Below are positions 11,237-35,076 of a stretch of DNA of 64,000 nt, piece after piece. Made by a program: the position numbers and the translations under genes. The notes under the pieces were generated by a model that worked only from the letters and a program-made list of their open reading frames with translations, had not been told where the DNA came from and did not search any database. Origin of the DNA: Anthoceros angustus (taxonomy: Eukaryota > Plantae > Anthocerotophyta); contig VJWM01000011.1 in the NCBI GenBank assembly GCA_010909165.1, forward strand, positions 248,001 to 312,000, read 5' to 3'. Within the stretch, counting starts at the first letter, position 1, and each line of letters begins with the position of its first letter.

Positions 11237-11444
11237 TGTCAAACTTGTATATTATTGCTTCCTTTGATAAATTCACCCATGCGTGGATAGCAACAAGCAC
11301 GAGAACATGCAAGAGTGTAGTAGATAGCACAAGAGCAAAACAGTGAATGAATATCAAATGAGAAAACAAAGTAACATATGAAGTATCACTATCTAAAATG
11401 TATATCAAGTCATTTAACCCTAACAGGTTATCCAATTAACACTC
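11237..11444 (-). repeat. Probable 3' LTR of the outer minus-strand Copia, displaced by the Gypsy insertion
   Basis: Joining 11444 to 40569 restores, on the minus strand, a PPT-like tract (agattaagtgggag) followed by TGTTAATTGG..., downstream of the Copia RNase H at 41366. A candidate ...TTTGACA end lies at 11237; this end is uncertain. Confidence 0.45.
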
Positions 11445-11942
11445 TGTCATGCCGTGTGATACTAATCTCTGCACTTGGGTTTAGTGCTTGATTAGCATTA
11501 ATTAATCTACTTACTTATCTTTAAGTAAGTAATTGTGTTAATTAATCTAAAGTGTTATATTAGCGTTGATTAGTGTTAATTAATCTAATGTGCTTAATTA
11601 ATCATTGATTAGTGTTAATTAATCTAATGTGCTTATGTTAAGCATTGATTAGTGTTAATTAAACAGGTAGCAATAGCTGGATAAGCTTAATATGCTGGCA
11701 TATTCCTTGCATATTATAATCAGTATTCTTAGGATATTTCCGCATACCGCCAATAGGATATCTTAGGAATATGCCGCTGGTCGATATATGACCCTTCCAT
11801 TGACAAGCTCGATCATACCGTCTCTGACATGCAACGCAAGAGCGCTTTCGGCGAGGCCAAAGCTACGACCCGGTGAGTACGCGTGAGAATCTGTTGTTTG
11901 AGACTGTGCCACACGACGCGAGCTACTCCCTCCCGTTGTTAT
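11445..11942 (+). repeat. 5' LTR (repeat A1) of the Gypsy element
   Basis: Begins TGTCATGCCGTGTGATACTAATCTC and is homologous to ~39819-40443. It contains AT-rich ~44-bp internal repeats with TTAATTAA. It is followed by TGGCGATC at 11946, a possible tRNA primer-binding site. Confidence 0.8.
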
Positions 11943-12085
11943 GCTTGGCGATCCCGCGCACAGACACTGGGGTTCGTGCCAGTTTTGGACGCTGAGCATG
12001 TGGCAGCGGCTACGCCAGCGACGCGAGGCGATGCTACCCAGGCGACGCCAGCGCTAGGCTGCAGGCGACGCTAGCTCTTAAGCAA

Positions 12086-12770: not shown

Positions 12771-13089
12771 CTATGCCTTGCTATCCAACTCACCCAGCTC
12801 ACATTTTTGACTATGTAGCCTGCAGAGTATTTGTATGCAATTTTAACATGCATAGATACTTAGAGGTTTCACTAATCACGATCTAAGATAGCGGGTGTGT
12901 TAACCTTGATTAAGGGTTTGATCTAGCCACTAACCGCCTGGAGTGCATGCCCGACACACTGATCCGGACGGAGCTACCAACCAAAGAAGTCCATCGAGCG
13001 AATTCAAGTCCCACCAAGAGAGAGAAGTGCTAACACCTCGATTTTGGTACCAAAGGACACGGAGGAACCCAAATGACACAATCAACAAT

Positions 13090-14950
13090 CTTTGAAGGAT
13101 CTGAGTGGCAACACACAAGACACGTTAGTGCCGCCGACAACTGGAAGCGATGAGGAGGACTTGTCTTGGAGTCGCCAAGATGGGAGGAGACAAGGATCGA
13201 ATGGAGTTGTTCACGTGACGAGCGGCACCTTGCCACCGGAGGACTTCATCGAGAAGTACGGTGCGTGGAGATGGAATTGAAGACCGGATACACGAAGCGA
13301 TACGGCTTCATCCAAATGCCAAGTACTTGGGGATGAAGCATTGGCGTGCTATCGCGAGCACAAGGCGAGGTTGTTGAGCGCACATCCGGAGGACTGAGTA
13401 GCTCAAGTTCAAGGAACCAAAGGCAGGAGTCACCGAGTGGGCACGATCCCATCAAGAGATGTTGACATCTTCCTACGGAGTTTCGCAAGCACGGATGAGA
13501 AGATCTCCGAGCACACTTCAAGATGAAGTCAGCGAGACGCAAGATGGCTTATCAAGAATCGACCATGGTACGTGACACCAAGATCATGAGTGACCGATCC
13601 GCAGAGAAGTACTTGCATTGCCATGCGCATGAAGGTGCAACAAGCGGTGCACAAGACGGGGGCAACACTACACCCTCAAGGAAGTGTACGAGATGGTCGA
13701 CAAGATAGGGCCACACACTTTCTCTCTCGTGGCAAAGTGATTACTCCAAAGACAAGTAGGAGTGGTGGACATGACCGACGCGGAGGTCGAGTGGAGGAGC
13801 TGAGACAAGCCAGCCCCACAGCCCAAGTGACGAGCCTCGCGAGGAGGTGCCGAGGGAGACCATTCTCATGAGTGCGAGCATGCATTCTGGAGGAGTCAAG
13901 GGTGAGGAGCCATGCCCTAGGTGTGGAGGTACGGCACAATGAAGCGGCATGTTGGGAGAAGCATCCGAATTGCGCCTCACGGGTTATCGAGCAGAACCCC
14001 GCCAATGCATCCGCCAACCTCATCCACAAAATCAAGAGCAAAGGCGCCGTGGAGGAGGCACCGAAGTCCCGTGGACAAAAGAAACGGAAGCATCAAAGAA
14101 GACGATGGATGCTACGTGGCACGCCTTGCAAAGCCGGAGAAGTTGGTGCGGCGAAGATCAAGGAGAGCAGCAGCTCATCATCGAGGACGAAGAAGATGAG
14201 CACAAGCTTGATACATGGCGACCGTGACTGTGATCCGCAAGGGGAAGAAACCTCCGCCTACGAGAGAAGATAGCTCGAGGAAGAAGAGGATGTCTTGACA
14301 CCAGCGGAAGACACGGAAGGAAGCTTCGGATCCTCTTCCCGAACCTATGCCAAGATGCCAAAGTCGCTTGAGCCATTGCCATGTGGAGCAACCTGTGGGA
14401 GCAACATCAAAGTCCAGAGGGCGATGGAGAAACCCATGCAGATTGTCGACGAGACGATGGCACAAAAGCTCGGAGATGCCATGTTTCATTTACAAGACAT
14501 GGGGTTGAGCGTGAAGGAAGTCGGGTTTGACTCGGATGTTGACAACCCTTGAAGACGAAGCAAGTGTCCAAGATGTGCCACAGTGGCAATGATGTCATTG
14601 CCGACCAAGCCAAGCATCTCGTGGAGAAGCGGAATGTCGCACGAGTGGGTGGCTTTGGTCAACAATCGGGAGAGGCACATTGAAATCAATGGATTCGCAC
14701 CAAGGAGGGTGTTGATTGACACCGAGCACACCGGTGATCGTTGGAAGAAGAGTGAAGGAAGCGTGGGTCTCCACCAAGAAAGGTTGAAGGAAACCAAGTG
14801 GAAGATCCGATCGCACTGGGACCACGGAGCATGTGTTGGGGTGACAAGGTACATGTCAAGGTTTCATTCAAACCAAGAACAGACTTCACCTTTGTCGAGG
14901 TACAGCTTGGTCACCGATGCATACATTTGATGTCTTGCTGGAGCGACGCT
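13090..14950 (+). pseudogene. Gypsy gag and aspartic protease (frameshifted)
   Basis: A degenerate gag-like region is followed by the retropepsin-like motif IEINGFAPRRVLIDT at ~14680-14725. Confidence 0.6.
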
Positions 14951-15359
14951 TTGTACAAACCTCGAGTCATGGTGGATTTGTGGACGGAGACTACTATCGA
15001 CTGGCCGAGAAGCCGGAGCAAAACCGATGAACGGATTGCCGCATCCCTCTGCTGCATGGCAAGGATCATGAGAACCTCATTGCCAGCGCCTACCCGGTTT
15101 GGCGCCAGAGTGAAGGACACGCCATACGTTTGAACCTCTTGGCGTGTGTCTAACAACCAAGCCCGATGGAGGATTTCGACGAGGAGGAGGAAAAGCTAGG
15201 GTTGCAACCACCCTGAGGAGGTTCTTCAAGTCACCGGACGGAGCGGATCGCAGAATGAGCCGAAAAGCTGTGGAGGATGGTGCAAGAGGACCAGGTCCTA
15301 TGAGCCGGAGAACAAAGTTCTTGCCTAGGGTTGAGCCTGCTTGTGACCTAAACACCTGT

Positions 15360-16280
15360 GTCATCACATGGCGACCTGAAGACGGCATAGTGCTCGTGGA
15401 ACTCTTTGGAGGCATCGACGCCAAGCAGCAAAGTGTGGCATCAAAGTAAGATACGTGCATTGTGACCCGGATCCAAAAGCAAGGATTGTGTCACGTGCGC
15501 CGTAAGAGACTTGATGGGGAGTACCAACCTCCGACGGGGGAGCCGTGAAGGGTTACCGAAGCCGGCGGATGTTCGCATGATAGGGTTGTCCCATTTGAGT
15601 TGTCTTGGGCAACCGTGGACCTTGTCATCGCAGTTGGGAGTGTCAAGGACTATCCTCGCAGTAAAGGGTCAAGGTCTCAAGGATCCACGAACAGCATTGT
15701 TCTATGACCGATGAGGATCTTGCGCTTGATCCAAAGGGCAAGAAAGGCCTTGTGGATACATGTTGGAGAATGTGCCAAGATGCATGAGCGTGAAGAAGCA
15801 AGTTCGGAGGACTTTGCCACGATCCGAGGAGTGTTGGGTCGAGCTTCTATTGGATGCATTCAATTTGGTTCGAGGGCTCATAGGTTGAGGTCCATGTGGA
15901 CTAACCTTGCTCCCTTGGAACATTTGAAGTGTGCGAGGTCGCTCACCAAGCGACCTAATCATGTTGTCAAGGATGTGCTAGCATCGGAAGGCATGCCCAA
16001 CAAGTCATCAAGACGACAAGCCGTGACTTCGTGAACACGCCTGACACCCCATGGCGGCTTGGCCAACCTTTGTGTCCAAGTCCAAGTCTTACGCCTGGGA
16101 ACCATGGCCCCGGCTGTGGTGGATGACATGGCGAGGTTTTGGGAGAGCCAACAGCCACAGAGGGAGTTGGCCATGGATTTGATGCCGGAGCCACGAAGAC
16201 ACCGGAGTGACCGAGAAGGAACGGTCGATTGCTTGGGCAAGCATTTGACGTGAACATGATGACTGGTTGTTTAGCTGAGT
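15360..16280 (+). pseudogene. C5 DNA cytosine methyltransferase domain embedded in Gypsy pol (frameshifted)
   Basis: Motifs in canonical order: I VLVELFGGI (~15391), IV VDLVIA(G)WECQGLS..KGQGLKDPRTALFYD (~15615-15710), VI YMLENV (15757-15774), VIII AHRLRSMWTNL (15876-15908) and X LGQAFDVNMM (~16232-16262). Confidence 0.85.
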
Positions 16281-16739
16281 CTTACCAACTTCAAACCAAG
16301 AAGGCGGGGTTGCTGGGTTCGGGTGAAGGATATTCAAGACTCGCATCTCAACAGGAGAAGGCGAGTTTGAGGGCAAGGAGAGCGAGCACGAGGAAGGCAA
16401 GCCATCTCGAGCCACAACCACATGAGTGGTTAACAGCGCCGAGTTGAAGAGCAATCAACGGCCGCCTAAAGGAGTTGTTGGAGGCATCGCGACATGTGTT
16501 TGCTTTCACGCTATGAGATGGGGAAGTACACCAAAGGAAGTTCCACATAGAACTCGACTACGATGAACCAGTGTTCCAGAGGCATGTGCTCACAAGGCCG
16601 AGTGGGATTTGGTTGAGAATCGATGCCAAGAGCTTCTCAAAGGGCTGATTCGACGATCTAACTCCACTACAAGGAGGCTACCTTTTACAAATGGGTCTAA
16701 GTTTAGTTAGAGGAAACTACAACACTCTTACTGACTCAA

Positions 16740-18440
16740 AGCCTGTTGTAAGTTTTTGAACATTTACAACAAGGGTTCCTAACTAATATGATGTGGCATG
16801 GATTTTACAACGGGGTTTGTTGACATGGCATTTGACATAATTTTACAACGGGATTTGTTGACATGGCATGTTGACACAAATTTTACAACGGGGTTTGTTG
16901 ACATGGCTTGCTCGTTGTACATGACGTTGTTAATTGTGCATAAACTCTTTTGATTTAGAAAACTATGGGGGTTATTTGTTAATAAAACTACATTTTGTTG
17001 AATTTATAATGACGTGGCATAAAGGATGTTGTAAAACGTACTTGTAAAAGACGTTGTAAACCATGTTTGTTGTAGATGTGGTTGTAAATTGTGCAAGACT
17101 TGATTTTTGGAATAATACCATTTATTGGAATATCTATGAATAGATTTATTATTTGCTGATGTGGCAAGTTCGTTGCAAATGATGTTGTAAATATGTTTCT
17201 CTGGATTTATGTTAGTTATGGGATTATCTTTTTTTTTTGTATTCTTGACGTGTCACATGCATTGTAGCTATGGTTGTAAAACGCATGAAAACCATTTTAT
17301 ATAAATATCTATAAATAAATTTATTATTTGCTGACATGGCAAGCTCATTGCAAATATCATTGTAAAATGGTTTCTCCAATTTATGTTATATTATTGGATT
17401 ATTCATTTATTGTATATTATTGACGTGGCACATGTCGTAACTATGGTTGTAAAATGCACAAGCCAGCCAATATCCATGAATAAATATATTATTTGCTGAT
17501 GTGGCATGTTTTATGTAAAATGCCGTTGTAAAATTTTGGAAGAGACCTTTTCCTTATTTATGTAATTTATGAGGTTATATATTAGTAAGATTCTTGATGT
17601 GGCATGCCTTTTCCTTATTTATGTAATTTATGAGGTTATATATTAGTAAGATTGCGATGTGGCATGCCTTTTCCTTATTTATGTAATTTATGAGGTTATA
17701 TATTAGTAAGATTGCGATGTGGCATGTCATGCCGTTGTAAATATGGAAGAGACCTTTTCCGATTTATGTCATTATGAGGCTATATATTTCGACCGAGTTC
17801 GCTCCACAACCCTTCTCCAATTGCAGGCGTGAAGATGAAGAAGAGGAATATAACGCTGGTGAGGAGGTTTCTCAGCGCGCTCGAATATATCGGCGAGGGG
17901 GGGCGTGCATGACGCAATGCATCTGCAGCTTTTCACCCGACTCCATCCTACAAGGACCGGAGATGATCCGGTTGTTGGAGCATCACTTTCCAAAATGATC
18001 AACAAGTGGGAGTGAAGAGGTATACCCAAACACACCTCTGTCCGTCACCTCCTCCCGCTTCTCTCCGATCGGTCACCTCCTCCCACGAAGACAAAGCATT
18101 CAATTGGGCTTTACCGGACCGTGTTTTACAACACGGTCCGTTTAAAAATGTACGTTATAAAATGTTTGAGACGGCCGAGATCGGGCCTCTCTCATGTTTT
18201 ACAACATCGTACAACCTAATCTAATTTACAACACGATCCATTGCAAACCTCACGTACATTGTAAAGCGTTTAAGAGAGGCCAAGATAGGCCTCCCACAAT
18301 TTTACAACATAGTCTAATTTACAACTTGCGCACTTGTATGTTGTAAAATGTATGACAAGGGATCAGCCTCTGCGTTTACACCAAATTCACAACGTAGTCT
18401 CATATACAAGGTCCATTGCAAAGCGATCTTGCAGCGTTGT
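16740..18440. repeat. Left subterminal repeat region of the CACTA
   Basis: Dense TTTACAAC/GTTGTAAA and GATGTGGCA/GACATGGCA motifs, including a 3x ~59-bp tandem repeat at ~17545-17730. Confidence 0.8.
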
Positions 18441-19079
18441 ATCTCGATCGGGCTTCGTGCCATTGACAAATTCACATTAGCGTAGTGCCATTGACAAATT
18501 CACGAGCCATGGCGGCGTTCAGAGAGACACAAGCCACGGTTCCCCAAGTACCACTTGCTTTCGTGCTCTCACATAAATCATAGCAAGAGTTAGGAACGCA
18601 CGAAGCGGAGTGCCGCAACCAGCACTCCACAACACCCTCAGGCAAGAGAGATGCACCACCTTCAAGCAAGAGACATGCACCACCTTCAGGCAAGAGACAT
18701 GCAGTCCTCTTCATGTGTCATTTAGCTGTCAAACAACTTCCACCAAAAATTGGACACTGTAACTCAGAGCGTGATTTCTTGATGCGAGAAGCCATATGAA
18801 CTAGCATCCATGAATACACTAAGGAGTACAGAGCCATTAAAGCTTGGTATTCTACCGATCTCGCTTCCATCAGCCGCCCTCTTCTCCTCGCTCTTTTGGT
18901 TTGCTATCCGGGACGCCCAGTGTTGATGTTCTACAGGCTTTCCCCTGCGTTGCATCCATGTGAAATGTGAAAGAGATGTAGTGTGGCAATATGCAGGGGC
19001 TGGATGTTGAAGCCATGAGAAAATGCAGTGGACAACAAAGTTGCATAAACGTTTGCAAGGCGAGAATGCTCAAGCATTG

Positions 19080-19560
19080 AAAACTTGATGCGCATCTTCT
19101 ACTTCGCCACACTTTGCCTACATGTCCACGGGCAAGTGCCCACAAGTGTGTTATCTAGTCCTCTCTCCACAATCAGGAGTGCACACCTTATAAGGCACTT
19201 GCGTTTACCGAGCCTTGGAAGGCAAGCAAAGGTAACATGGTTGCCACAATCAGCCCTCCTTCTCCATTTGTCCATACGAACAAGCGCCTCTTGGCCAAGC
19301 CATGATTTGCATACCCAACTATCGGGCCGTCCATGTCACGACATCCTTTCGCCTAACCTATCGAAAACCGTGTTTGCCTCTTCCAGATTCACCACGGTTT
19401 GCGTACATGTCCACCGCATTGGCAATAAACAAGTTCGGTGGAATGTCATGCAACATATCATGCCGCACTTTTCGCTAGATTCGTGTCCACAAATGCACAA
19501 GCTTGAAGGGCTGCAAAGATGTGGGCATCCGCCTTCACACGAGCGACACATCGCATAGTA
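19080..19560 (-). pseudogene. Captured PLS-class PPR gene fragment
   Basis: Degenerate PPR motifs VDMYAN.G.LEEANTVFDRLGER.VVTW and VDM*AKCGEVEDAHQVF, with stops and frameshifts. Confidence 0.6.
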
Positions 19561-19871
19561 AAGTTGTATCGCCTCATTAGGCTCCCCATGTGTAGCATGC
19601 GGAGATTATTGAAAACCACATGAAGGGATTTGGTTTGCCCCCTCCGTAGCCTACCTCCGGATACATACATGCAAGATATGGTTCCCCAAGTATGTGATTG
19701 ACTCATCCAAGTTTGACTGAGATCATGAACGTCATCCCACAACCATGTCCTTCTTATCTCGCACAAAGTTTTAGCGACATATAAAATGGATGAGGAATAG
19801 AATAGTCTATCTACATGATTTTACTCCGGCCTCGATAGCTTTCCCTACTCACATAACGTCGATGGTTACAG

Positions 19872-20661
19872 TGTCACGACTCCCATATCCAATCCGCACA
19901 CCTCCGCTCAGCTTGGGAGCTCGACTTGGAAGGAGAAGCACAATGACCCACGCATATTCAAAGAAACAAGCTTCTCATCCAACAAGTCGGCTTGAACATG
20001 TTGTTTAACCCGAGGACCTCACGGACTCCTTGCGAATGTCGTGAGCGAGAGCTCCTCTTACCTCGCCTAGTTTCCCACGCACAAGAGGGGAGTCCTAGGA
20101 AGTGGTGATGGGAGGACGGTTACTTGGTGTGGTCACTGAGAAGCGGTGGCCGCTCAAGTCCGCTTACACAGTCCGTAGTCCTATCTATTCAAATAGGTAG
20201 GACTCAAGTCCTTGGTCTTTGGGGTTTGGGAAAACAGACTCAAGTCCTTGGTCTTGGGTTTGAATGATGTTCCTTGGTCCTTAGTAGCAGATAGAAGCCT
20301 ATTTCAGTCCTTGGTCTTGAGGTTCGGAAGGATGTTCCTTGGTCCTTGGGAAAATGGTATGTAGATAGAAACCTAGTCCTTGGTCTTCGGGTTTCGGAAG
20401 GATGTTCCTTGGTCCTTGGGAAAAGTAGCATGTAGATAGAAACCTATTTCGAGGGCCGAGGAAGGCAACTTCCTTGAACCATGGGAATTCCGTTTTCTAG
20501 ATATTGCATGTAGGGCTATATATGCATGTTAGGTAGACTAGGGGTAAAATTGGCACATTCTAAGAGGCAACCGAATCGCCCTAAGGTAATGGATCAGAAT
20601 CCTAACGGTGTGTACTACCTAATGGGATGCACGATTACGAGCATCTTGGATGCTTGTGACA
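19872..20661. mobile_element. Possible solo LTR
   Basis: Bounded by the inverted ends TGTCAC and GTGACA, with internal short tandem repeats (gtccttggtctt; gatgttccttggtccttgggaaaa). The flanks TACAG/CACAT match only 3/5, so no clean TSD. Confidence 0.4.
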
Positions 20662-21290
20662 CACATGTGTTTGTCTCGCTTCAAAATGTGAACGCACAAG
20701 TTCATGCGCAGGCAAGGAATCCTTCCGATCTTGGAAGAGCGGTTGGGGAATGGCATTTTCAACATCGATGGAGAGATGTGGAAGACGCAGGAAGACTTCA
20801 AGCTTGAGTTCTCTTCAGTGCTGTGATTACGCACCAACGCGAGAGAGGTGCTCGCGGCAAGACATTGCCCAAGCTTGGGAAAGGAGGAGGTTGTTGACAT
20901 GCGGTGAATGATGGTGTGTGGAGCATGTTGCAATCCGCCTTCTTAATGCTCGTGAATTTTGCTCGATGATTCGTGCAAGCCATTGAAGGATCTCTTCGCG
21001 CATGACATTCGATTCCATTTGCAAAATCGGGCAACACCCTTAGGCAAGAGACATGCACCACCATCTATGAGTGCAATCGCGTTCCTTCCACAATTTGTGA
21101 GTGCATACGTGCCCTTTTGCATCTTCCAGCTCACCATATTTTGCGATCCTCTTTCATGGGTCGTTCAACTGCCAAAACTTGGCAGGCATTTTCCGTTCAC
21201 CAAATTTTGCATACATGTCCACTGTAGGTGCCCACCACTACATTCTCCAGCAGCCGAGCCCTTGCTGTACCCATAAGGGCATTCCATGTC
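20662..21290 (-). pseudogene. Second captured PPR gene fragment
   Basis: TWNALMG and ENVVVGT..VDMYAKFGE motifs, degenerate. Confidence 0.5.
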
Positions 21291-21399
21291 ACCATATCCT
21301 CGACAAAGCAAGCAAGACTACAAGAAAGGTTAGGGAATCACCACTAGTTGTCCATCATAGTGAAGACTAAACGAGGTTCTTTGAAATCATCATCCCCAC

Positions 21400-22525
21400 T
21401 TGCCAATTAAGACGATCCATGTAACGTAGGGGTCGTCGTTCAATAGCCCATCATAGCATATGATGGATAACCGAGAGACAGACCGAGATTCTTGAATCAA
21501 GCAGCTTATCCCCACTCGCCAAGACCACATCCATGGTGCTCCCATTCCTCCTCCATAAGATGATCCGGTGGCGTGGCGCGTCGTTCTCTGACTCTCCGAG
21601 TGTCCAAAATTTGTCGACTTATTCTCCAAAACACGGAAGGAGGATTCGCACTCCTCTCTCGAGGTACTTAGCGCCAATTTGAGTAGGCGGGACAACTTCC
21701 CTACATCGGGCGGGGAACCCCAAGCCGGATGGCGCCACTTGTTCGCATGGCGGGCAGGGAGACTTGTATCACAACCATCTTGTGAAGCAAGCGGTGGCTA
21801 TGTCCTCACCTTGTTTACTATGTGTCCTCAACAATGGTCGAAGGCTCTGCGGCGGTTTTCCACGAGGACAAGCCAAAGGCGGCCCGAGTACACCGTGCCA
21901 CACAAGCCGTGAAAGGTGGAACCCGATACAAAACGGCTCCCGCTTGAGTGCGCATCGGAACAAAGGCGGGTGTCCGCTGCGGAGAAATCATCAACGTCTT
22001 GTCTTCTTTACTCTTTCCGGGACTACGCCGAGGCAACGGCCAAGATCGGATACCACACTCAAAGAAAAAGATTGATTTGTGGCCCAATTCTAGTGCCTCA
22101 TCGCTACCAAGAAGCCGGAAGAGGTCGATCATCGAAATTGGCGCGCAGCAACTACGCCGCAACAATCGGTCATGCGTTGGGCGTCGTAAACCCTTAAACC
22201 ACGAACCCGTTGCCTTACGGAACCCCAACAAGTCCAACGGTGAGGATGTGCAATTTGAAGAAGGGACGTCGGTGGCGGAAACCTACGCACTAACTATCTC
22301 GGATGTCGGTACCCATGTCGCATTAATATGCATCCGAGTTGAAGTCCGTTGCCTTGGATGCATTCGATGAAAGGCGATGCACCACGAGGAGCGATGCGGT
22401 GGTCGTGGTGACGGGCGGGCGATCAAGCGTGGAAATGGACCATGGTATCACGCTTTGCAACATTGATGATTTCACCGGACATGCAAGGATCCGCATCGGT
22501 AGAACCCCAACAACGGTGACCTAGC
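21400..22525 (-). pseudogene. Retrotransposon gag-like fragment
   Basis: Degenerate retrotrans_gag-like text (ATGSWFKGL..IFFFECGI) and a decayed zinc-knuckle-like motif near 21790-21830. Confidence 0.35.
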
Positions 22526-23149
22526 ATGTTTTAAGAAAAACTAAAAATATTTTTGAACACCAACCTATATCAACTATCTATCTATCCTCCCATCGTCTCT
22601 CCCTCTTTACCTCTTTCGCATTGTACCCTTCCTTGCCCCGCATAACATGTCTATTACTCCAACTCTACTATGTAACTCATTGGTCATCATCCGCTCATAC
22701 TATATCATCTTCATCATCCTCACTCATGCTATCCCGACTAGAAGCCTCACGTTGTACTATCGTCTTCCACTAGAAGCCTCACGTTGTACTATCGTCTTCC
22801 ACGTCGTTTGTACTCACCATAATTATAATTAAATAAGTGAAATATTTAAGACTTGGGATACTTTTTATACTTATAAGAAAAGCTTTAAAATATTTTTCAA
22901 CCTATCAATTACCTATCTATCCTCCCACCCTCTCCACTCCTTATCCCTCTATAATCTCCACTCCTTATCCCTCTATCATCTCCCTTCCCCTTCTCCTTTC
23001 CACATAACAAGTCTATTACTCCAACTCTACTATGTAACTCATTGGTCATTATCGCTCACGCTATCATTGTCTTCATCATCCTCACCTATGATATCCGCAT
23101 CCTCATCATCTTGACTCATGTTATCCTCGTCTTGAGCCTCACCTTGTAC

Positions 23150-26100
23150 TATGCGTCTTCCACGTGCGCTTGTACCCACCACAATTTTCCATGCATTTTA
23201 GAATTCTCATACAAAAGACTTGCTCCACTTTCTCCGATACTAGTACAAATGGCTCATCCTCCAACTTATCATTGGATAACATGACATCGTTAACCATGAA
23301 CATACGAGATGTATCTGTTTTGATGGTCAGTGCTCTTTGTTCCATTGAGCCTTGAACCATCTCACCTTCAACACATTTACTTTTTAGACGGCCCTAAGTC
23401 CACCTCCAAAATCTTTTCCACCTTTCCAAAGATAGGGAAAATCTGCTATAATAGGTTCGGTGTCCCGCGATGTGAAACACATGCCGGCTATATAGATGTT
23501 TTATAATGCTATCACATGTATTCTTTCCCTATCGCATCTATAGTCCTTATATGATTTCCATATGCCCACATCATTTTATATGATCGCACACGAGGAGGTC
23601 CTCGCACAATTGCACATCCAACCCATAGGTTTGTCGCATTTCCCTTTCTTATACTTAACTTCATCTATCAACCATTCGCAAAGGGCGTTGCTCGTCGTCT
23701 ATCTCATACACTTTTCGCCATTTTTGAGTACAATGAGTTTTCCACTAACACTTTCCTCATCTTGCATTTCCACATCATTCGGTCATAATTTTGCCATTCC
23801 TTGCAATAACACCCCACATTGGGTGACATCATCTTCTGATTTCCACACTCTTGGTGCCTCTTTATGTGTATTTCTAAAGAACTTTGAGCTATAAAATATT
23901 ATCTTTTGTCCTAAGTATCCTAAAGCCATGCTACCTTTTGGTCGGCTTTTTGTCGAACAAATCCCTTTAACACAGCTTTTATGTGCCTTTCTAAGAACGA
24001 TATTGAGTTGGTCCACATAACTCAACCTCCCGCACAAGATGAACAACAACATGTACTTGACTTGTCGGAAAAGTCATTGGAAATTCTCTCTCCAACACAC
24101 ACATGATCTCCACACTTTTCACCTTCATAGCTGGAATTTCATCCTTCGCAATTTCTTTTGAACAAAGCCACGAATAGCTCGGCAAGATCACATATAGCCT
24201 TGTGAACATCATGATGTATTAATCCTTTCAAGACAATTGGCCACAAATCCGTTGATGGTGATGATCATGAGACTTTAACCACGAAATTCCCTCTTCTCTC
24301 CCTTTAGAAAACAACGCTCAAATTTGACCCATACCACAGAGGAATGATCTGCAAATCCTTGTTCTCAATTTTTCCTCTGCATTAGCATACATTCGCCTCT
24401 TTTCTGCCATGTCCAAGAACCGGTCTTGGTGTCGTTATAAATGTCCGTCCACAGGTTCGCCAGTTTTTTAGTTACCTTGCACCCCATTTACAATGTTTTG
24501 GCCTCTTTGTCTCCTTCCACAGGCGATGGCCTCGCATGGGGCCACCAATCTTGTTTGGTATTTGAATACTCAAGATCTCTCGACTACCAAGGGAATCTTG
24601 ATTCCCACATATGTGTGCCAAAATCATTGACTTACATTCTTTCCAATGTGCATGATATCAAATAAGTGTCGATCAACAATATACGCAACCACCAAATAGC
24701 ATGACTAAAAGTTAACCTTCATGAATAGCTATTAGTCTACCTACCGATGCTACCAATAATATAATTAAAATATTCTTGAAAAGGGTAATACTTGCAAGAC
24801 CCCATATGCATGCATACATACCTCCCAAGATGGAAGCTCCCGAAAATTGAAGGCTCGTCGCTAGTAACACCCAGCTGTCTTCACCATTGTCTTTTGCATA
24901 TTTCCGGTTAAAGCTTTCGATCATAATATCCTCCGGAGTTGGTGCATAGTCCGGATGAATAATTTCCATCTCACCTTTCCATTGAATGAATCCCGCTCTT
25001 CCACTCTAAACTTGTGTTCCTCGTAAAATTTTCTAAAATTCTTATCATACGTCATTTTGTTTGTGAACATTGACTTTCTTGCTTCTAATTTGTCCCAACA
25101 TATCGGACATGCCCGCTTCCCTTTTGTTTGCATTTTAGAAGTGAAAGAATATCCGGATAATCATGCATCGTCCACAACAATAAGGCCTTCAATTTAAATT
25201 GTCTTTGAGCATTTCCAATAGCCATAGAAGCATCTTGTACGACCACACCTTCCTCCCACAGTACCTTCAACTCTTCGATGAGTGGTTGAAAATATATCTG
25301 CATCTTTACTTGCTTGGACCGGAATAATCATTGACAACAATATATGCCCATTCTTGATAGATAACCAAGGAGGCGTTATAATTGACAAGAAGCACACAGG
25401 CCATATAGAATACCTAGAACTTTGGTGCCCAAAGGATTAATCCCATCCGTAGCAAGTCCTAATCGAATGTTGCGTCTCCTTAGCAAACTCGATAAGTGTT
25501 GTCCACATGTTCCCATGCATAGCTATCCGATGGGACCCGCATAATCCCATCATTAGACTTATTTGTGGCGTGCCATGACATCATACTTGCTAGCTCCGGA
25601 CATCTAAACATTTGTTTCAATCTAGGAATCAATGGAAAATATCAAGCTTAACCTACACACTCGTTCTTCGTGTCAATTCGATACCTATGTTCCACACATC
25701 TTGCGAATAGCAATTGAAAACTCTGTGAACAACATACAATCATCTTGACAAGCATGTATGGATGTATATGTTAGGCCAAACCCTTAAGCATCTTTTTAAT
25801 TTCAGCCCTACTTTTGGCAACTTGTTGCCACGAGGCCTAATTTGCCTAGTAATGATAAAATTGAATTCAAAGATGCATCCGACCAGCCATGCCTCCTTTG
25901 GATGTTCAATAACAATAAAATGAATGCCAATAAACTTATCTCGGCTCCAACCCATAGAGGCGTAGTTCTGCGGTGTGCATCGCCTTTAATTCCTCGGTGC
26001 AAGGAATCGACTGTTCTTTAGTCATTTCCGATGCCAAACCCCACCAAGTGCCTCCACCAACTCTATGGTCACTTGTTCGTCGGGATGAATGTTGACATGT

Positions 26101-26156
26101 TCTTCATCAACCTCAAAATGATCATCAACCTCAATAAAATCTTGTTCCTCTTCAAT
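23150..26156 (-). pseudogene. CACTA Tnp2/TnpD transposase core (Transposase_21, DUF4218, DUF4216 regions), frameshifted
   Basis: TPLWVGAEISLLAFILLLLNIQRRHGWSDASL, NIRLGLATDG, YSIWPVCF, QPLIEELKVLWEEG..LLWTMHDYP, ACPIC, DIMHI and CVLEREFP..QVHVVVHL..EVELCGP. Confidence 0.88.
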
Positions 26157-26382
26157 CTATTTATTCAATCACACGCACAGAATAAATATCAAATAAGTAT
26201 ATAAAATATTGTAGTTCTATATAGAATAAATTAATATTATAATTTCAAAACTTTAGTATAACCACTGTTATTAATGAAATATTGAACAACATGCAAAACT
26301 AAAAAGGTTAAGAAGTCAAGTGAGGAGAGTATATACTAATTGTTTTGTTGCAAATATAGTCAATATACACAAGGTACAAGAC

Positions 26383-27231
26383 CCTCAACATCAACTCTTC
26401 TACATCCTACAACAAAAACTATTCCACATCCTCGTGCATCAAATTTGCCTTCAATTTCTTCCACTCCATCATGCGTAATTTAATGTGTCTATGTACTCTT
26501 CCCGCCTTCCTTTTGGCTTCAAATGGTTCGGGTTATACCAATTGTAATCAACAAACAACTCTTCCCGCATTAATGGTCCTCACGCCCAAGTGCAAATCCA
26601 ATCAAGATGGTCGTCACTTAGTAGCTCATGCCCATCCGACCTTTCTTCCCAAATGCAATTTTGCTTGATTGCGATATTTCCACTACTACTATTCATATAT
26701 CCCACATTCCCCATATGCAACATGCCCATCGAGGTACTCAATTGGGCCATCATTAACATCTTTACGGAGTCTATTGAAAGTCAATGCATACTTGAAATCG
26801 GTAACTGTTGTAGTTCACTATCTTGTTATATTCTCCCTGTATACTTTGGACCCCAAACACAAACAAAGGAACTCCATTCACATTATCTTTTCTCACTACG
26901 ATTTTCTCCATGGAAAATAAACCCAACCCCATGGTCGGGTTTGTTGCCTCCTTCACTATCCACCTTCGCCCCAATATAGAAATGACTTGTTAATAGGAAT
27001 AGGTCCCTTCTCCCACATTCCCCATTCTCTAGGGTACACGCCTTTCAAAAGATGCTTGTATAAAACAATAGCATCATGAGACTTTGGATCTTCCCCTCTT
27101 TTGGATGATAAGGAGGTGCAATAAAGGGTCCGGTCTGCCTTTCCATCCAAAGGTTTTCCTACACCGCAAAGCCATGTGTCCACTCCTACGCTCACTTGTT
27201 ATAACATGCAAACAAATCGAACTCCTTCCAA
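26383..27231 (-). pseudogene. SET-domain (lysine methyltransferase fold) exon lying inside the CACTA transposase gene
   Basis: Across small frameshifts: RRWIVKEATNPTMGLGLFSMEKI, KYALTF, YLDGHVAYG/NVGYMNSS..QNC and ICTWA/VRTINAG(E)ELFVDYNW. These match the SET signatures GxGLF, RxxNxS and GEELxxDY. A ttttttatag acceptor precedes 27231. Confidence 0.75.
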
Positions 27232-27450
27232 CTATAAAAAACAACCATAATTACACATATGAATAATTAAACTACCTTTAATATAACAAGAGAAACATAC
27301 TTACCACAATTAGTATGCCACATCGTAATTATTCTATAGATAATATTATATAATTGCTTTATTATTGTATTTTCTAGCATAGAAGAAAAGGGCTCCATAA
27401 TTACTTCATTAGTTTATTTCCTAGCATAGAAGAAAAGGATTGCAACTCAC

Positions 27451-27720
27451 GGTTGTGGCTACGGGTGGTTCTCCTTGTTCGCTATTTCTTCTCCTCTCTC
27501 CTCCTCCTCCTTCTCCTCTCCTTCTCCTCCTCGTTGTTCTTCTCCTCCTCGTCCTCCTTCTCCTCCTCGTTCTTCATCTCCTTGCGGTTCTCCACCGGGA
27601 CTTCATTCTGGGAGGTAAGGTCCATTCTTGCGCAAATGTTTACGTGCTTGGTTAGCTCAGAACTCGCCTTGCACTCTTTGCACCAACATTTTGGAAAATA
27701 TATTGGATATTTGGGCGCTT
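27451..27720 (-). pseudogene. N-terminal exon of the CACTA transposase (transposase-associated CxC..HL..NG domain plus acidic tract)
   Basis: KCWCKECK...RKHLRKNGPY followed by an E/K-rich tract. It ends at a GTGAGT donor at 27450. Confidence 0.65.
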
Positions 27721-30096
27721 AAATCTGAGCGATCCATAAGGACCTACCCTCAACAATGATCGTGGGTTAGCTTAAGCGACAACTTGCCCCTGTCTTCCGA
27801 GCACGTTGGAAAGTGCAGGCTACCTTCGATGAAGTGCTCACCGCCTCGCTCCAACCTCCGTGATCGGCGTAAACCGTCGAGCCAATTCTAATCTAGAGCA
27901 ATTCCATGCAACTTCGATAACGCGATACTCAAAACGCTTTACAAAGAGCATAGACTGCTGCAGCGGACTTGTAGCTATCTAGCATCCGGATGGTCGATTT
28001 AGGTGTGCAGTTTTATTGACCCTTGCTACTAGAAGGCCCTCGCCGCGATGGAAGGCCCTTCTAGCTATGTAGTGGATGGTTAGTACAAGAGAAAGGCCTC
28101 TTACAGTGCTTGTTAGGCGGTCAATCCAAAGCGCTTTACAACACGAGGCGTTGCAAATCGGTTTGGGAAATTTGCAACGCTCTCTTATCAACGCACTCGC
28201 AGCAACATTTGCAACGCACGTGACCAATTCTAATCATGAGCAATTGCATGCAACTTGACAATACTAAACGCTTTGCAAAAGACCCGCAGCGGACTTGTAG
28301 CTATCTAGCATCGCGCGGATGGTCGACCCTTGCTATGAGAAGGCCCTCGCTTCGCACAATGGGCGGCTTGGCCTCTTACTCGATGATGCCGCGAAACGCA
28401 GCGCTTGGCCTCTTACAGCATCGGTCCAAAGCGCTAGCTAGCGTTACAGCTTTGGGCAATTTGCAAAGCATTCGTAAAGCACCGTAGTGTGCTATTGATA
28501 TAGCCTTAGCTTACTTAAAGGCGCAAGCCTTTCCTTATTGCGTGGGACTCAAGATTGTGAAATGTGTGAGCAACTTTATATCAAAAGCTCGAATGCCTTT
28601 ACATCGATAGGCGGATCGTCTTTGCCAACCTCGCGTGACTTGGGTAGACTACGAAACCACATTTGTGATGAGTTCATTATCACTCGGATCCGGCTCGGTC
28701 CGTGTCGGAGCATAGTCTTCACAAAGGTAAGGTGGCTCCGTCATGCTCCATTCGTGATGCCGATTAAAACCTTGAGCCCCAAACAAAATCTACCTTGTTA
28801 GCATTTATCATGCAGAAAGCAGATCACTCACAGACTTTTACACTTACGATAGAAGGAGATGATTAGGTTAGGCACAAGATCCATTTCTCCCGTCAAGTCG
28901 AGTCATCCGAGTTCCGCTTCTTCACAAAAGTAAGCCCTTGGAGACCACGGATCGAGAGTAGTACCAATGTGATGATAGCACACCAAGGCGTGCAGCGTGG
29001 AAGCATGTGACCAAAAAACAAGGACGAGTTCCATCCGGAAGGGTGGGACCCTTCTCTTTCTCCGAGGAAGGCTAGGAAGCGGACGCAATGTTACACAACC
29101 CTTGTCACAAGGGTCAAAGTTTGCACAATTCAGGCATCACCTCCTCTTCATCACGCATCTCCTCCGGCTGGGATCCACCTCCGGAAGGTCCTCGGCCGCC
29201 GGCGCCAGTTGTCGGCCATCACCTCCGGATGGTTCTCGGCCGGCTCGCGTTGTCTACCGCCATCGCTGCTCAAAACGCACTTGGCCGGGTCGGGCTTAAC
29301 ACAATCGGAGTTCACAACCGAGTTCACAATCAGGTCGGACAAACACAATCGCTCAAAGTGTGTGCGGCTCACTTTGAGGTACCGTCGATTCGCGCAGGAA
29401 CGGATCAGCTGTAAAACTATAGTGTACAGACCGAGTTCGCACTGGGAAACAGGAACAAAGTGACAGGCCCCCAAGGAGCCCCTTACTCTCAAACTCCATG
29501 GCGTCAAAGAAACCATATGTGGGTCTTTCAACTGTCTCGGCAGTGTACAGTAGAGTGGGTGTGGGCGGTGTTAATGCGGAACCTCGAAATGCGTTCTGGT
29601 GTGCGATCAGAGGATTGAACTCTCATTAGGTACCGCCTAGCCCGCTTGCTGTACTGGCAACATCAACAACTGGCATGATGATGAGTGCCAAGAAGACTTA
29701 AATTCTTTAGCAGCACCGTTTAAGGAGGGGCGAATCAGAGGTTTTAAGACTCGGGCTCAAGTGGATGGCCGAGGAAGCATTGCCCCTTTAGCCCTTATTC
29801 TATTCATTCCCCGGATCTTTTACACATTAAAGGGGCACGAGTCCCAAGCAATAGCCTTGAAAGCACCTAAGGGACAACATAGCTACGCTCCATACAATCC
29901 CTCTATCGCCATCAAAATATCTCCGAGGAGCACACTCGCTAAGCAGCCCTGTGCTCAAGCACTCCGTTGTCATATCATATCCATTTTCATGCCAATGGTT
30001 TCCCTCAAAAGGAAAGAAGCATTAAAGCTTTATTTGTAGGCTTGCATGGGTCACCATCAAAACCTCATCACTCATATGCTTTCACCCATTCTGACG

Positions 30097-30406
30097 CCGG
30101 GTAATTGCAGAGTTGCGGCATGGGGACCTCTTCCACTCCTCCAATATTGTGTCCAGCATTGAGTTTGATCGGGATGACGAGCTATTTGCCACTGCTGGAG
30201 TATCAAGGAGGATAAAAGTGTTTGAGTTTGCAACGGTGGTCAATGACATGGCTGATGTGCATTGTCCCGTGGTAGAAATGTCTACCCGCTCCAAATTGAG
30301 TTGTATGAGTTGGAACAAGTACATAAAGTCGCACATTGCGTGCAGTGATTATGAAGGGATTGTTACAGTATGGGATGTGAATACGTGCCAGAGCATCACG
30401 GAGTAT
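30097..30406 (+). pseudogene. COP1: Captured COP1 WD40-region fragment
   Basis: Uninterrupted RVIAELRHGDLFHSSNIVSSIEFDRDDELFATAGVSRRIKVFEF..HCPVVEMSTRSKLSCMSWNKYIKSHIACSDYEGIVTVWDV..SITEY. Similarity stops mid-exon at both ends, and no other COP1 exons are nearby. Confidence 0.85.
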
Positions 30407-31189
30407 GTGTACCAGACAGGCCCAGCGCCTAAACCTCACCCGAAGTTTATTACTTGGTTCTCGCGGGATTCTGTTCTGGCCCGCAGCTCCACTCCACCGG
30501 CTAGTTGCAATCTAGTTTTCTCAACTAAGTGTTCGCCACAAGAAGCCGAGAACTTTGCAAAGGCAGGGTGTGCATGTTCAGGCGTGGTGCCTTTTTGCAT
30601 ATTTAATGAATCTCCACCAATTGTGATGACCTTACTTTGACCTCTTTCTTGTAAAAAAGCCACCCTAACATGCAAAAAGCCATTTGGGCACCAGGTGAGC
30701 ATCTTTGCCTACCATGAACTAAGGTGAACAGATACGTATGTACACAAGAATGTAGGGGATCGGTTTGTGCGCATGACCGATCCTAAGCGCCGTGGCCGAC
30801 CTTTCTTGAGAAACAAGAGCCGAGCCGCACGGTAGAGAGAGAGGGTCTCTTAGTTTCCTTTTGTGCGTTCCATATGTGTACCACTTTTACCTACTAGAGA
30901 TTTTAGAACGTAAAAGTGAACGCGTTGTAAATAGTAATAGTTTCTAATTTTACAACGGAGTGTGTTGTAAATGGTAATAGTTTCCGACTTAACAACGGAG
31001 CGCGTTGCAAATAGTAGTTTCAAAGTCGTTTCATACAAACTCACGCACTGCAGTGCACGGTAGGTGACGCAGTGCACATGGCGGTGTGCAATGCATGCAA
31101 GATCTTGTCCAAGGAACATGCTTGCACACAAATCGATATAAAGGCGGGTTCATATGCAGTAGATGTTTACATACCGCGGCGTATGTGTT

Positions 31190-31520
31190 GAGAGCCTCTG
31201 TCGATTGCCCTCGGGGTGTGTGAGCTTGCCATCGGGGTGTGTGGCGTGGGGAGCTTGTGCTAGTGTACTTGAGGGCCATGCGGCTTGCCATCGGGTATGT
31301 GAGGTGGGGAGCTTGTGTAGCTAGTGTAATTGAGGCCATGCGGCTGCCATCGGGGTGTGTGAGGTGGGGAGCTTGTAGCTAGTGTAATTGAGGGCCATGG
31401 GGCCACCATCGGGGTGTGTGAGGCCGGGCTTGCCATCGGGATGTGTGACGAGTGGGAGCTTCATGTAGTAGTGTAATTGAGGCCATGCGCACCGCCATCG
31501 GGGTGTGTGTGTATTATAAT
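31190..31520 (+). repeat. Degenerate ~60-bp tandem repeat (gccatcggggtgtgtgaggtggggagcttgtagctagtgtaattgagg...)
   Basis: About 5-6 imperfect copies are visible. Confidence 0.75.
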
Positions 31521-33117
31521 TGAGAGTCTATGTGTTTGAGAGAAGCGGGAAGCCAACCATGCCTCTGCACATTTTAGAAGCGCGGGAAGGCCATGAGAAG
31601 TGCGGGAAGGCTTTGTAAAGCGCGGAAGAAGAAGCCGGAATTTGACGTCCATCCGTACACAAGGCCCGCACCTTGCTTAAGATTGTCGACTTGGCTTTGC
31701 GGCAGCTTCAAGGATTGCTTGATGAGAGATTGCGACTTTGCTTAGCAGCGTCACATGTTGAGTCAGCCTCCCCCTCTCACGCGAGATCTTGGTCGCGGCC
31801 GCGTTGTGTATTGCACACAAGCTCTAACAACGGCACATGGTGTTTAGTTAGTGACTACACACAAGCTCGTGTTTAGTTAGTGACGCAATTACCTACAACA
31901 CAATTAATTAGGGCTTTGAATTCCTTGGATCAAGAAGGTTTGTGTGCATCCCCAATCTCTTATGCTTGGTGCTTTTTAGGGCACGCACTTTCATGGGCAA
32001 AGGTTGCTAAGCGCCTTTCTACTAACCCCAACCACCTTGCAATGTAGATGGTGCACTACACGTGCAAGTCGGTTGGGTTTGCATTGTCATGCGCGATAAG
32101 GAAACAAGACTTTTGGCCACATTAGTGGTGGGGGCAGCGGGATGCCGTGGTGGAAGGATCGCCTCTAACGGCTCGGTGGTTGGGTTTAGTAGGCAGCGCA
32201 AGGAGGCTGCTTTCCGCTTGTCGACAAGCCTAGCGTGCGAAAAAATGGGCCACCGTGAAGGCAAAGAAGCGGGAGGGCGTCTCAAAGGAGCGGCGGAAGC
32301 GCCCGTCTTGTCGCCTCGAAATGTGAGTTGTGCATCAACGGCTTTGTCCGCGCATATCGCAGGTTTGAATCACGCCCTTCAACTAGTTCGCGAGCTCTAG
32401 GGTCGGTGATGATAATGAGCTCTAAGATGGCTTTTCTTTTCTCACTTGTGTGGTAGGAAAGCGGGCGATCGCCCGCGGTGGAGACAAGCAGCCTCCTCCC
32501 GATGCCGTGGAGGAGGGCGGAGGAGGCGGCCTCCCGATGCCGTGGAGGCGGCCTCCTCTAATGCCGTGGAGGAGGAGCGCCTCGATGCCGTGTGGAGTCG
32601 GCGCTGCCGCTAATCCCATGGCGGCGCGCTCTGTGGAAGAGCTCGTGCCGTGCTTCGTGGAGAAGCGAAGATCTCAAGTCACCACCACCTCCTCTTAGGT
32701 CTTCGGATGAGAGAACAAGGGCCACCAGCGGTGGCTTATGTGCACAGGACCTTTTGAGAAAGATGATAGCTGCGAAGGCAAGCCCTTCCTCCCTTGTCCG
32801 TGACACTGCGGCTCAAAACTTACCGGACCTTCAATCCAAGGTCAGTACTCCCATGCCACCTCCACCACTCCTACTCCTAACCCTTCCGTCAATGTTGGTT
32901 CTCGCAGTTTGAAGAAGTGCAGCCTGATGGAGCAGCAGAAGTGGAAAATCCAATGTGGAGGAGGGAGATGGCGGGGCGGAGATCCGCCGCCAAGGAGAAA
33001 TCGAATTAAAGGAGATCGCCCAAATGCATACGTCATTCCACAATGGACATTCATCTAGAATCGTGTTTCGGTTTTAGTTGAAATGACTCCTTGCTTTTAC
33101 TTTCATAAGCTTGTCCA

Positions 33118-33512
33118 GGCGGTGTGTGGCCTTGCGCCCAATGTTTCTCTTTTGGTCTCTCAAGCCACGCAGGCAAGTGTGTGGCCTTGAGCCGATGTTT
33201 CTCTTTTGGTCTCAAGCCTAAAGCCACAAGTGTGTGGCCTTGATCGCCGTATTTTCTATTGTCTCAAGCCTAAACATGCGGTGTGTGGCCCTTGTGTGTT
33301 CTTTTGGTCTCTCAAGCCTAACAGTGTGTGTGGGCCTGCCCGTGTTTTTTGGTCTCTCAAGTCTAAATGGCGGGCCGCCCATGTTTCTCTTTTGGTCTCG
33401 CAAGCCTAAACTGGCGGTGTGTGGCCTTGAGCCCATGTTTCTCCTTTGGTCTCTCAAGCCTAAACAGTGTGTTTCTCGTTTGGTGTCAAGCTAAACATGC
33501 GGTGTGTGGCCG
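33118..33512 (+). repeat. Degenerate ~55-60-bp tandem repeat (gtgtgtggcc...tttggtctctcaagcctaa)
   Basis: About 7 imperfect copies are visible. Confidence 0.75.
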
Positions 33513-33639
33513 CTTGGCTAACAAGGATGTACATGGCATGCATGGCATGTGCATACAAGCATGTGGCCTATACATGCCAGCCACATGCACCGCAGCATGT
33601 ACAAGCATATTCGATGTTTTCCTTCTCATGTGTCGGGTT

Positions 33640-34860
33640 GGATTAAAGAAGATTCATACGATTATGAAGTGCTCCAATTTCGGTTGAGGTGGGCACTTCA
33701 TGGATCCATTGATTGGCAACCGGGAGAGAAACTAGAGACACAAGCAATTGTGGAGGCAGCCATTCAAGAGATGTTGGTGGGATTTGGAGCATGGCTCATG
33801 TGTGTGACCAAATGTTCAACACCATGTTGCGCAATTGGAAGAACAATCTTGCAAGATGCGCAAGACAATTTCTTGAGGGTAATCATCCACCTAAGTATAA
33901 GCCTCGTGATATCTCGGTGACCGGTGGGATCGCATTGTGGAGAATGAAAAGCCAAGGCCGGGATGGAGATGTCGCACAAAACGCATAGCAATGTTGAGGA
34001 AGTTGAACTCGGATGCTGCCGTATGCCCACTTTGGTAATGGTGGGTTTGTGAAGTTTACAAATCGGTTTTACCAACTCTTTGGTAGACGCCTCACAGCAA
34101 GAGGCAGGCGAAGGCCGGGAAATTGGATAATAAAACTTGAAACATATTGGGCGCCAATCTTCCTCATCCGGCGTTTGGCTCCAACCCCAGAATAGGTGCC
34201 AAACAATTGTGGCGGGACCTCAAGGATGCTGGTTACAAAGATGATGATTTGGATGGTAAGATTTTGATTTGATGTCTTTGCAAGTTTTGATTGTCCTATT
34301 TTAACTCGTTTTTGGATTTGCCATAGGAGCCGTATCGGCATTGGGCGCAAGCAAATGGATGATAATGACTGGTTTTTGGACAATTTGGTGCCTAGATTGA
34401 AGCCCGGGTTAAGTGAGGATCTTTCTCCTGTAGTTCTTATAGAAGATCTTTCAAGTCTTTGTTGTAACACCGCTTCTTGGTAACATATTCGATTCTTGCA
34501 GAATCGGGTGTGGCCTCCGCCCCTGGTGGGAAGCCTTAACCTCCCAAGTGTGGTCAAGACCGGTGTGGAACGAAGCCACGATGAAGTACTTGTTGAAGTT
34601 GAACCACTCCATCTCATGGAAGAGGTGGAAGAATTTGAAGAGGTTGAGGTATCCTCTCTAAATGCGAGGAAAAGTTTTTCAATCTCATGGCCTCTCATCG
34701 ACGGGCAGAACTTGAAGCTCAACGCCTTTCTGTGAAGCTAGGTCTGGACTACGCCAAAGAGCTCAAGTCATCAAGGGTGAAGAGCATGAAGAGGAAGGAA
34801 ATGAGGCTTCAACAAGTCCAATTTGAAGAGATCAAGGAGCGAGGAATTCTAGTTTGGTGC
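33640..34860 (+). pseudogene. Probable CACTA second gene (TnpA/Transposase_24-like), degenerate
   Basis: Protein-like spliced fragments (MFNTMLRNWKNNLARCARQFLEG..PRDISVTGWDRIVE) inside the CACTA, on the strand opposite the transposase. Family assignment rests on position and weak motif resemblance. Confidence 0.4.
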
Positions 34861-34899
34861 TTTCTTTTAGTTGCTCCTTAGAAACTCTTAGAAATTGAT

Positions 34900-35040
34900 C
34901 GACATCGCTTTTGTGGGAATGTCCCTTGTGTGTGTCTGGGGAATGGCCCCAATGTTTGTGAGTGTGTGTGCGGGGAATGGCCCCATGTTTGTTTGTGGGA
35001 GTCTGTGTGTCCGGGAATGGCTTCTATGTTTGTGTGTTTA

Positions 35041-35076
<36 letters not shown>

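Follow-up and report, generated by a model that had tools for sequence, protein, structure and literature searches.

Does a Gypsy retrotransposon of the hornwort Anthoceros angustus encode its own cytosine methyltransferase inside pol, and if so, where did the enzyme come from and what would it do? The question is raised by the 64,000-nucleotide stretch of contig VJWM01000011.1 analysed here (the window), in which an earlier note, made from the letters alone, had read an unpermuted, DNMT3-like C5 DNA methyltransferase (DNMT) between the protease (PR) and the reverse transcriptase (RT) of a Gypsy element. The answer favoured here, with moderate confidence, is that the locus holds an inactivated Gypsy copy of the order PR-DNMT3-type-RT-RNase H (RH)-integrase (INT)-PHD, likely from the same old green-plant lineage as KnitGypsy-Dnmt3 of the alga Klebsormidium nitens, and that its enzyme would methylate new cDNA.

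Identity of the methyltransferase domain

The five DNMT motifs named in the earlier note are all present on the plus strand in the order I-IV-VI-VIII-X, spread over three frames: ELFGGI (~15396), DLVIA and WECQ (~15620-15646), ENV (~15766), AHRLRSMWTNL (~15876) and LGQAFDV (~16232). A Pfam search of the raw frames matches PF00145 in none of eight translations of the DNMT region. Relatives were first reached through the integrase end of the element, and eight of them make up the family profile used for alignment. A frameshift-aware alignment to this profile recovers the whole domain, motifs I-X unpermuted, at 15381..16276 on the plus strand with a score of 238, against 21-35 for six shuffles. 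PF00145 is matched by eight of the nine relatives in one set, and all six pre-RT relatives (DNMT ahead of RT) score above its curated cut-off. The PF00145 search proposed in the earlier note thus recovers the domain in the relatives, to which the family profile ties the window.

The window domain keeps the catalytic Cys, ENV and RxR, and reads WECQG at motif IV, with Glu-Cys in place of the Pro-Cys dipeptide. When profiles of the relatives are compared with solved structures, DNMT3A is the best match (E 2e-17 and 7e-23), DRM2 matches in part (~1e-11) and bacterial enzymes are weaker. AlphaFold models of one relative with the domain after RNase H (post-RH; L003, pLDDT 83) and one pre-RT relative (P0170, pLDDT 92) likewise match DNMT3A/B in Foldseek, with TM scores of 0.6-0.7. 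These profiles and models support the identification of the window domain as a C5 methyltransferase of DNMT3 type within a Gypsy pol, as first proposed. Mammalian DNMT3A and DNMT3B have their fold, motif order, catalytic Cys, ENV and RxR in common with the element family, but they are only ~20% identical to the family profiles, lack an insertion of roughly 25 residues after motif II that sets the element-family domain apart, and, in DNMT3A, carry GSPCN where GWECQ stands here. An origin from DRM was rejected because the motif order is unpermuted, unlike that of plant DRM2, which aligns with only part of the family profile.

Anatomy of the element

The element is bracketed by an exact 46-bp direct repeat, present in two copies in the window, of which the left (11399..11444) abuts the 5' end and the right (40523..40568) follows the 3' end; these and all features of the element lie on the plus strand. 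Terminal repeat A1 (11445..11943, right end approximate) begins with TGTCATG and has 94.7% gapless identity to A2. Its first nine bases are identical to those of repeat A in the metagenome locus L011, and other copies begin near 11444-11447, matching the A1 start. No tRNA primer site after A1 is shared between the window and L011, and no tRNA genes were found within the 64-kb window. The 5' internal region contains an array of ~33-bp repeats at 12240-12600.

A probable gag region is placed by its position at 13070..14500 (bounds approximate). It is multi-copy and includes a Cys/His stretch near 13910-13970; there is no relevant Pfam match in it, only a similarity of E 0.72 to the knuckle of the relative P0078. 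The protease, expected near 14700, is a frameshifted aspartic protease domain at 14700..14989 (score 68.5 against 17-21 for eight shuffles). Beyond the DNMT domain, sequence comparison places the N-terminal part of RT at 16390..16664 (left bound approximate). The earlier note had put the RT N-terminus at ~16450-16664; RT does not end there but resumes at 37111 on the far side of a nested CACTA DNA transposon. Remaining RT and RNase H extend over 37111..38200 (right bound approximate), with 53% identity to P0019 over an RT-RH read-through and an RT_RNaseH match of E 0.0011. The integrase, with zinc finger, core and C-terminal part, occupies 38380..39535 (bounds approximate); it is 49% identical to P0019 and, over 96 aa, 65-66% identical to proteins of Calypogeia fissa. 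A PHD finger closes pol at 39540..39663 (PF00628, E 7.5e-6, above the cut-off). There follow repeat B1 (39730..39823; 92.6% to B2 over 68 nt), terminal repeat A2 (39824..40441), delimited by repeat comparison with A1, and repeat B2 (40442..40522), which forms the 3' end and seems either to lack a few bases or to have diverged. The first reading of the element was incomplete in that it had missed the PHD finger, the splitting of the repeats and the insertion of CACTA.

The CACTA element (16665..37107, minus strand) is no part of the retroelement. It is identified by CACTACAAG inverted ends and a CTC target duplication, and encodes a DUF4218 transposase piece on the minus strand (E 1e-11). Over its 20.4 kb it also contains subterminal tandem repeats and, near 30095-30637, a captured WD40 piece, which we take to resemble COP1.

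The order PR-RT-RH-INT is that of Ty3/Gypsy. The ends differ from the classical Gypsy pattern of two complete LTRs and a 4-5 bp target duplication: the repeats are split in the layout A-coding-B-A-B, and the flanking duplication is 46 bp. The latter exceeds by far what a Gypsy integrase would be expected to leave (4-5 bp) and may be a long target duplication or a local rearrangement. At the flanks of L011, unlike those of the window's element, there may be a 4-bp duplication in which a single base is mismatched. The L011 element opens with TGTCATG and closes with CATGACA, the reverse complement (2123-2129, 11949-11955 and 12388-12394), so that the internal B1-A2 junction resembles a joined pair of ends and could template both termini. 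Membership in the DIRS class was rejected, since the window's element and its relatives have an rve-type (DDE) integrase in place of a tyrosine recombinase.

The copy in the window is dead because the 20-kb CACTA element is inserted in RT, which it breaks at 16664. The DNMT domain itself has 17 frameshifts and no in-frame stops. Probably these frameshifts stem in large part from read errors: almost every one is a deletion, indel events outnumber substitutions in all six repeat comparisons within the window (e.g. 121 against 59), and single-copy genes keep long open exons. Neighbouring genes in the window include a receptor-like kinase and TFIIB, alongside the CACTA and Copia elements; together with the liverwort neighbours of the integrase they indicate a land-plant host. 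At 49951-57932, ~2-kb Copia pol segments stand head to tail in an array; they are 95-97% alike outside gaps but full of short indels, and the array could be an artefact of assembly.

Relatives that carry the domain

The homolog search returned 187 proteins, and most members among the matches listed are metagenome proteins. Those with organism names, again among the matches listed, come from Closterium and Mesostigma on the pre-RT side and from Pleodorina, Haematococcus, Monoraphidium and Cymbomonas on the post-RH side. A motif scan of metagenomes adds 22 loci, all with the DNMT domain. It precedes RT in two of them (L001 and L011, near-identical) and lies after RNase H and/or directly before the integrase in 17; the rest are too short or give only a partial order. 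The family is also multi-copy in three organisms, represented by the contigs of runs X1-X3.

Several relatives are intact where the window copy is broken. L011 has the order gag-PR-DNMT-RT-RH-INT-PHD between repeats arranged A-coding-B-A-B, as in the window. P0237 is a single 2300-aa ORF with PR, DNMT, RT, RH, INT and PHD, P0170 runs gag-PR-DNMT-RT, and P0048 likewise continues from DNMT into RT. The continuous PR-DNMT-RT frame that the earlier note had suggested looking for therefore exists in the family. In P0078 and its kin the protein stops ~110 residues past the DNMT, and there may accordingly be a form with two ORFs as well.

Searches with uncorrected window sequence reach less far. A word-based search with a 108-aa ORF yielded none among 218 candidates, and single-frame phmmer against 1.84 billion proteins gave 19 matches, the best at E 1.3e-7 and none below 1e-10. 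Among the new phmmer matches, 16 of 17 are family domains, the exception being P0215. No relatives were found among viral contigs. Two family members, P0116 and P0193, have a bacterial label in public databases; they are probably eukaryotic DNA in metagenome bins.

Some post-RH members extend further downstream. Long ORFs lie downstream of pol in L007 (7959-10250), L012 (9215-11521) and L022 (13320-15839). In P0013, P0015 and P0008, all of the post-RH algal type, a C-terminal tail of 350 aa continues past the PHD finger. The tails of P0013 and P0015 contain DPFAG and SPPF motifs, found together in only two of 32 post-PHD tails, and match MethyltransfD12 at E 0.0035, below the cut-off, which suggests an adenine-methyltransferase-like domain beside the DNMT3.

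Conservation and the motif IV loop

Conservation was assessed in 121 domains, a set that includes the window, L011 and near-duplicates and excludes domains shorter than 230 aa and 11 distant C5 enzymes. The catalytic Cys is present in 116 of 118, and the motif VI Glu in 119 of 121; of the two Arg of motif VIII, the first is found in all 121 and the second in 116. Immediately ahead of the catalytic Cys stands Glu in 65 of 118 domains and Pro in 40. Judged from these alignments, WECQ is a family trait that is not fixed. The replacement of Pro by Glu seen at first in the window thus stands, and decay of this copy was rejected as its source. Glu and Pro alternate at least six times on the DNMT tree, as expected of a tolerated site. 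Three pre-RT members, P0030, P0032 and P0155, have strongly diverged methyltransferase domains (AGCQG or WPCVY) and are possibly on the way to pseudo-enzymes.

Substitution rates show that the DNMT domain is under selection in the algal-type (post-RH) relatives, a result that concerns those loci and not the window's own family. Three pairs of post-RH loci have a Ka of 0.08-0.10 in DNMT at saturated Ks, with an RT Ka of 0.06-0.10; against the more distant L002, Ka is 0.39-0.41 in DNMT and 0.20-0.24 in RT. On the pre-RT side, P0170 and P0048 are 83% identical in DNMT, 70% in the linker and 87% in RT.

What the enzyme would do

In the favoured mechanism, the DNMT domain would be made with Pol and carried in the particle, where it would bind SAM and methylate cytosines of fresh double-stranded cDNA, possibly also DNA at the insertion site. 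The PHD finger on the integrase would read histone H3 and guide site choice. The earlier note had further proposed that the enzyme would be freed from the polyprotein. The cDNA methylation proposal draws on the conserved catalytic residues, on the selection described above and on analogy with SymbioDIRS-Dnmt3 of Symbiodinium, which, in the available text of PMC5890265, performs de novo CG methylation in yeast. Counted against it are the replaced Pro, the lack of extra CpG loss, and the same report's finding of no methylation by KnitGypsy-Dnmt3 in yeast, a result its authors call inconclusive. CpG observed/expected ratios are 0.76-0.86 in the retroelement and 0.80 in CACTA, so there is no extra depletion. 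CHG depletion in the retroelement (0.47-0.57) equals that of CACTA (0.52), which fits ordinary host silencing.

The same points feed the strongest alternative, which is rather unlikely but deserves weight. It accepts the lineage and the anatomy and holds that WEC-type domains are weak or dead as enzymes: they would bind or trap DNA, or form dimers with the host's DNMT3 as DNMT3L does, thereby shielding cDNA or damping host de novo methylation. The change from GSPC in DNMT3A to GWEC here, the inactivity of KnitGypsy-Dnmt3 in yeast and a CpG depletion no greater than that of neighbours speak for this alternative. However, active SymbioDIRS elements likewise lack CpG depletion. The repeated Glu/Pro switch is that of a tolerated site, and conservation of the Cys, the Glu and the two Arg extends over the entire set. 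Pseudo-enzymes usually lose catalytic residues.

A further, improbable alternative is an active enzyme that, once the element has integrated, acts mainly not on free cDNA but on the chromatin of the host or on the promoter repeat of the element itself, as self-restraint or mimicry. The PHD finger on the same polyprotein would suit such a role, and the available text of PMC5890265 lists insertion-site effects and slowed transposition among the options; the position within Pol, on the other hand, would favour contact with cDNA.

Origin of the domain and of the element

Trees of three parts of pol place the window among elements that carry the domain. The DNMT tree separates pre-RT from post-RH placements with a support of 98 (FastTree, 121 rows), and an IQ-TREE analysis of 35 chosen rows gives the pre-RT side 99/96; in the latter, six rows whose DNMT position was not visible took their label from the FastTree result, and the long rows P0030, P0032, P0152 and P0155 were omitted. 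The window falls on the pre-RT side of the DNMT trees, on a long branch. The RT-RH tree joins the window with P0048/L011 and P0019 at 96 and, with a support of 100, separates off 27 of the 28 post-RH rows; the exception is P0152, a post-RH member on the pre-RT side. In the INT tree (FastTree) the window, Calypogeia fissa and L011 group at 96, and a 28-row set with a support of 95 contains both the window and K. nitens GAQ89224, a protein not established as a copy of KnitGypsy-Dnmt3. Two pre-RT members, P0140 and P0155, fall outside the window's set.

All of these trees are unrooted and contain elements only, no DNMT3 of hosts; what they reveal is common ancestry of the elements, not who the donor was or in which order things happened, and horizontal spread may have played a part. 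Within these limits the DNMT, RT and INT trees agree in putting the window on the streptophyte-type side (DNMT ahead of RT), apart from the chlorophyte-type elements with this DNMT behind RNase H, which points to an old shared lineage and not to independent capture. The window's element thus appears, from comparison of its sequences, to belong to an old lineage across green algae and land plants. Between the two origins considered in the earlier note, a land-plant member or an independent acquisition, the trees favour the former.

Capture of a host DNMT3 separately in the element's own land-plant lineage is accordingly very improbable. What it has in its favour is the long branch, with an identity of only ~41% between the window DNMT and the closest relatives on both sides and no relative above that, the modest best phmmer match of a single-frame query, and the absence of host DNMT3 from the trees. 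Against this, the domain sits where it does in pre-RT relatives and at a comparable spacing from PR to motif I (228 codons, against 148-286), shares the WxCQG motif and lineage-specific blocks with the family along its whole length, and is accompanied by an RT and an INT that group with domain-carrying elements; moreover, the family profiles are far from DNMT3A. Finally, although the assembly is indel-rich here and the element holds another nested insertion, it is scarcely credible that the segment is a separate insertion, a pseudogene fragment or an assembly chimera in an ordinary Gypsy element, a view rejected for want of termini of its own (no bracketing terminal repeats or duplication beyond chance, the longest being 6-7 nt), opposed by a DNMT-bin depth like that of neighbouring pol in contigs from three organisms (runs X1-X3), by one listed contig that spans the 5' junction and by the listed joints (15 of 19), not one of which skips the segment, and largely refuted by intact relatives with the DNMT in the same place (P0237, P0170, L011), which make the segment integral to the family, as the earlier note had assumed.

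Under the favoured reading of an old shared lineage, capture would have happened once and the domain would later have shifted between two positions in pol. A more far-reaching version, put forward tentatively and with less confidence, dates a single DNMT3 capture before the chlorophyte-streptophyte split. From it would descend a so far unrecognised Gypsy clade whose direct repeats are split and whose members extend from green algae up to land plants, with the DNMT at two pol positions, a working Glu-Cys loop, de novo methylation in land-plant genomes and, in some algal members, an added adenine-methyltransferase-like tail.

Comparison with known elements

The closest published element is KnitGypsy-Dnmt3, described as having Gypsy domains and DIRS-like repeats and as acquired within the lineage of K. 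nitens (de Mendoza et al. 2018, PMC5890265, available text). It shares with the window the Gypsy domain set, an unpermuted Dnmt3-type domain in the Pol ORF and the key residues. Its repeats also have the layout seen here, with A1 and A2 flanking the ORFs and two B repeats flanking A2. In the INT tree the window's element falls together with an INT-PHD protein of K. nitens, and the link to KnitGypsy-Dnmt3 consists of this one integrase fragment and the paper's description. The window's element differs in its land-plant host, and the available text makes no mention of a PHD finger, of where in pol the DNMT lies or of a WEC motif. Furthermore, that text treats the capture as specific to the K. 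nitens lineage, whereas relatives are found here in Mesostigma, Closterium and chlorophytes. SymbioDIRS-Dnmt3, in what could be drawn from its description, is similar in its Dnmt3-type domain in Pol and its A-coding-B-A-B repeats, and has two coexisting domain orders; it differs in being of the DIRS class with a tyrosine recombinase, where the window's element has a DDE-type integrase (rve) and a PHD finger.

Other elements resemble the window's in part. EpiLTRs and DAM-LTRs are LTR elements in which a chromatin reader is likewise combined with DNA methyltransferases (Fernandez-Moreno et al. 2026, bioRxiv 10.64898/2026.05.21.726589, available text). According to that text, EpiLTRs carry a DNMT4-related DNMT, a chromodomain and DAM, and are distinct from the streptophyte Gypsy-DNMT3, for which the preprint still cites the K. 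nitens element. The window's element has instead a DNMT3-type domain and a PHD finger, its pol ends after the PHD finger, and no DAM domain was seen. Gypsy-7a_cRei of Chlamydomonas is a green-lineage Gypsy element that, as here, has a PHD finger in the polyprotein; unlike here, no DNMT is named in the available part of its description (bioRxiv 10.1101/2022.06.16.496473).

Gypsy-Dnmt3 elements are named, in the literature as far as its text was available, only in PMC5890265 and the 2026 preprint, besides a later citation. The main text of the REXdb paper (PMC6317226), as available, has none of the terms "PHD", "methyltransferase" or "methylase", and the available text of PMC12344493 cites only the earlier Gypsy-Dnmt3 report. 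No report of a land-plant or chlorophyte Gypsy-Dnmt3 was found; subscription papers, theses, Repbase and supplements may hold one. Relative to this record, the window's element is a new, divergent member of Gypsy-Dnmt3, a group whose range is much wider than published.

Implications

In the literature so far, Dnmt3 in a Gypsy element is an oddity known from a single alga. Should the lineage indeed span green plants, among them land plants with their well-studied methylation systems, why a transposon keeps a silencing enzyme would become testable in moss or liverwort models. Surveys of plant DNMT3 genes, in turn, could be contaminated by transposon copies, which standard Pfam searches often miss. 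Active sites of both the PC and the EC type occur naturally in the element family, which thus provides a ready-made series of variants.
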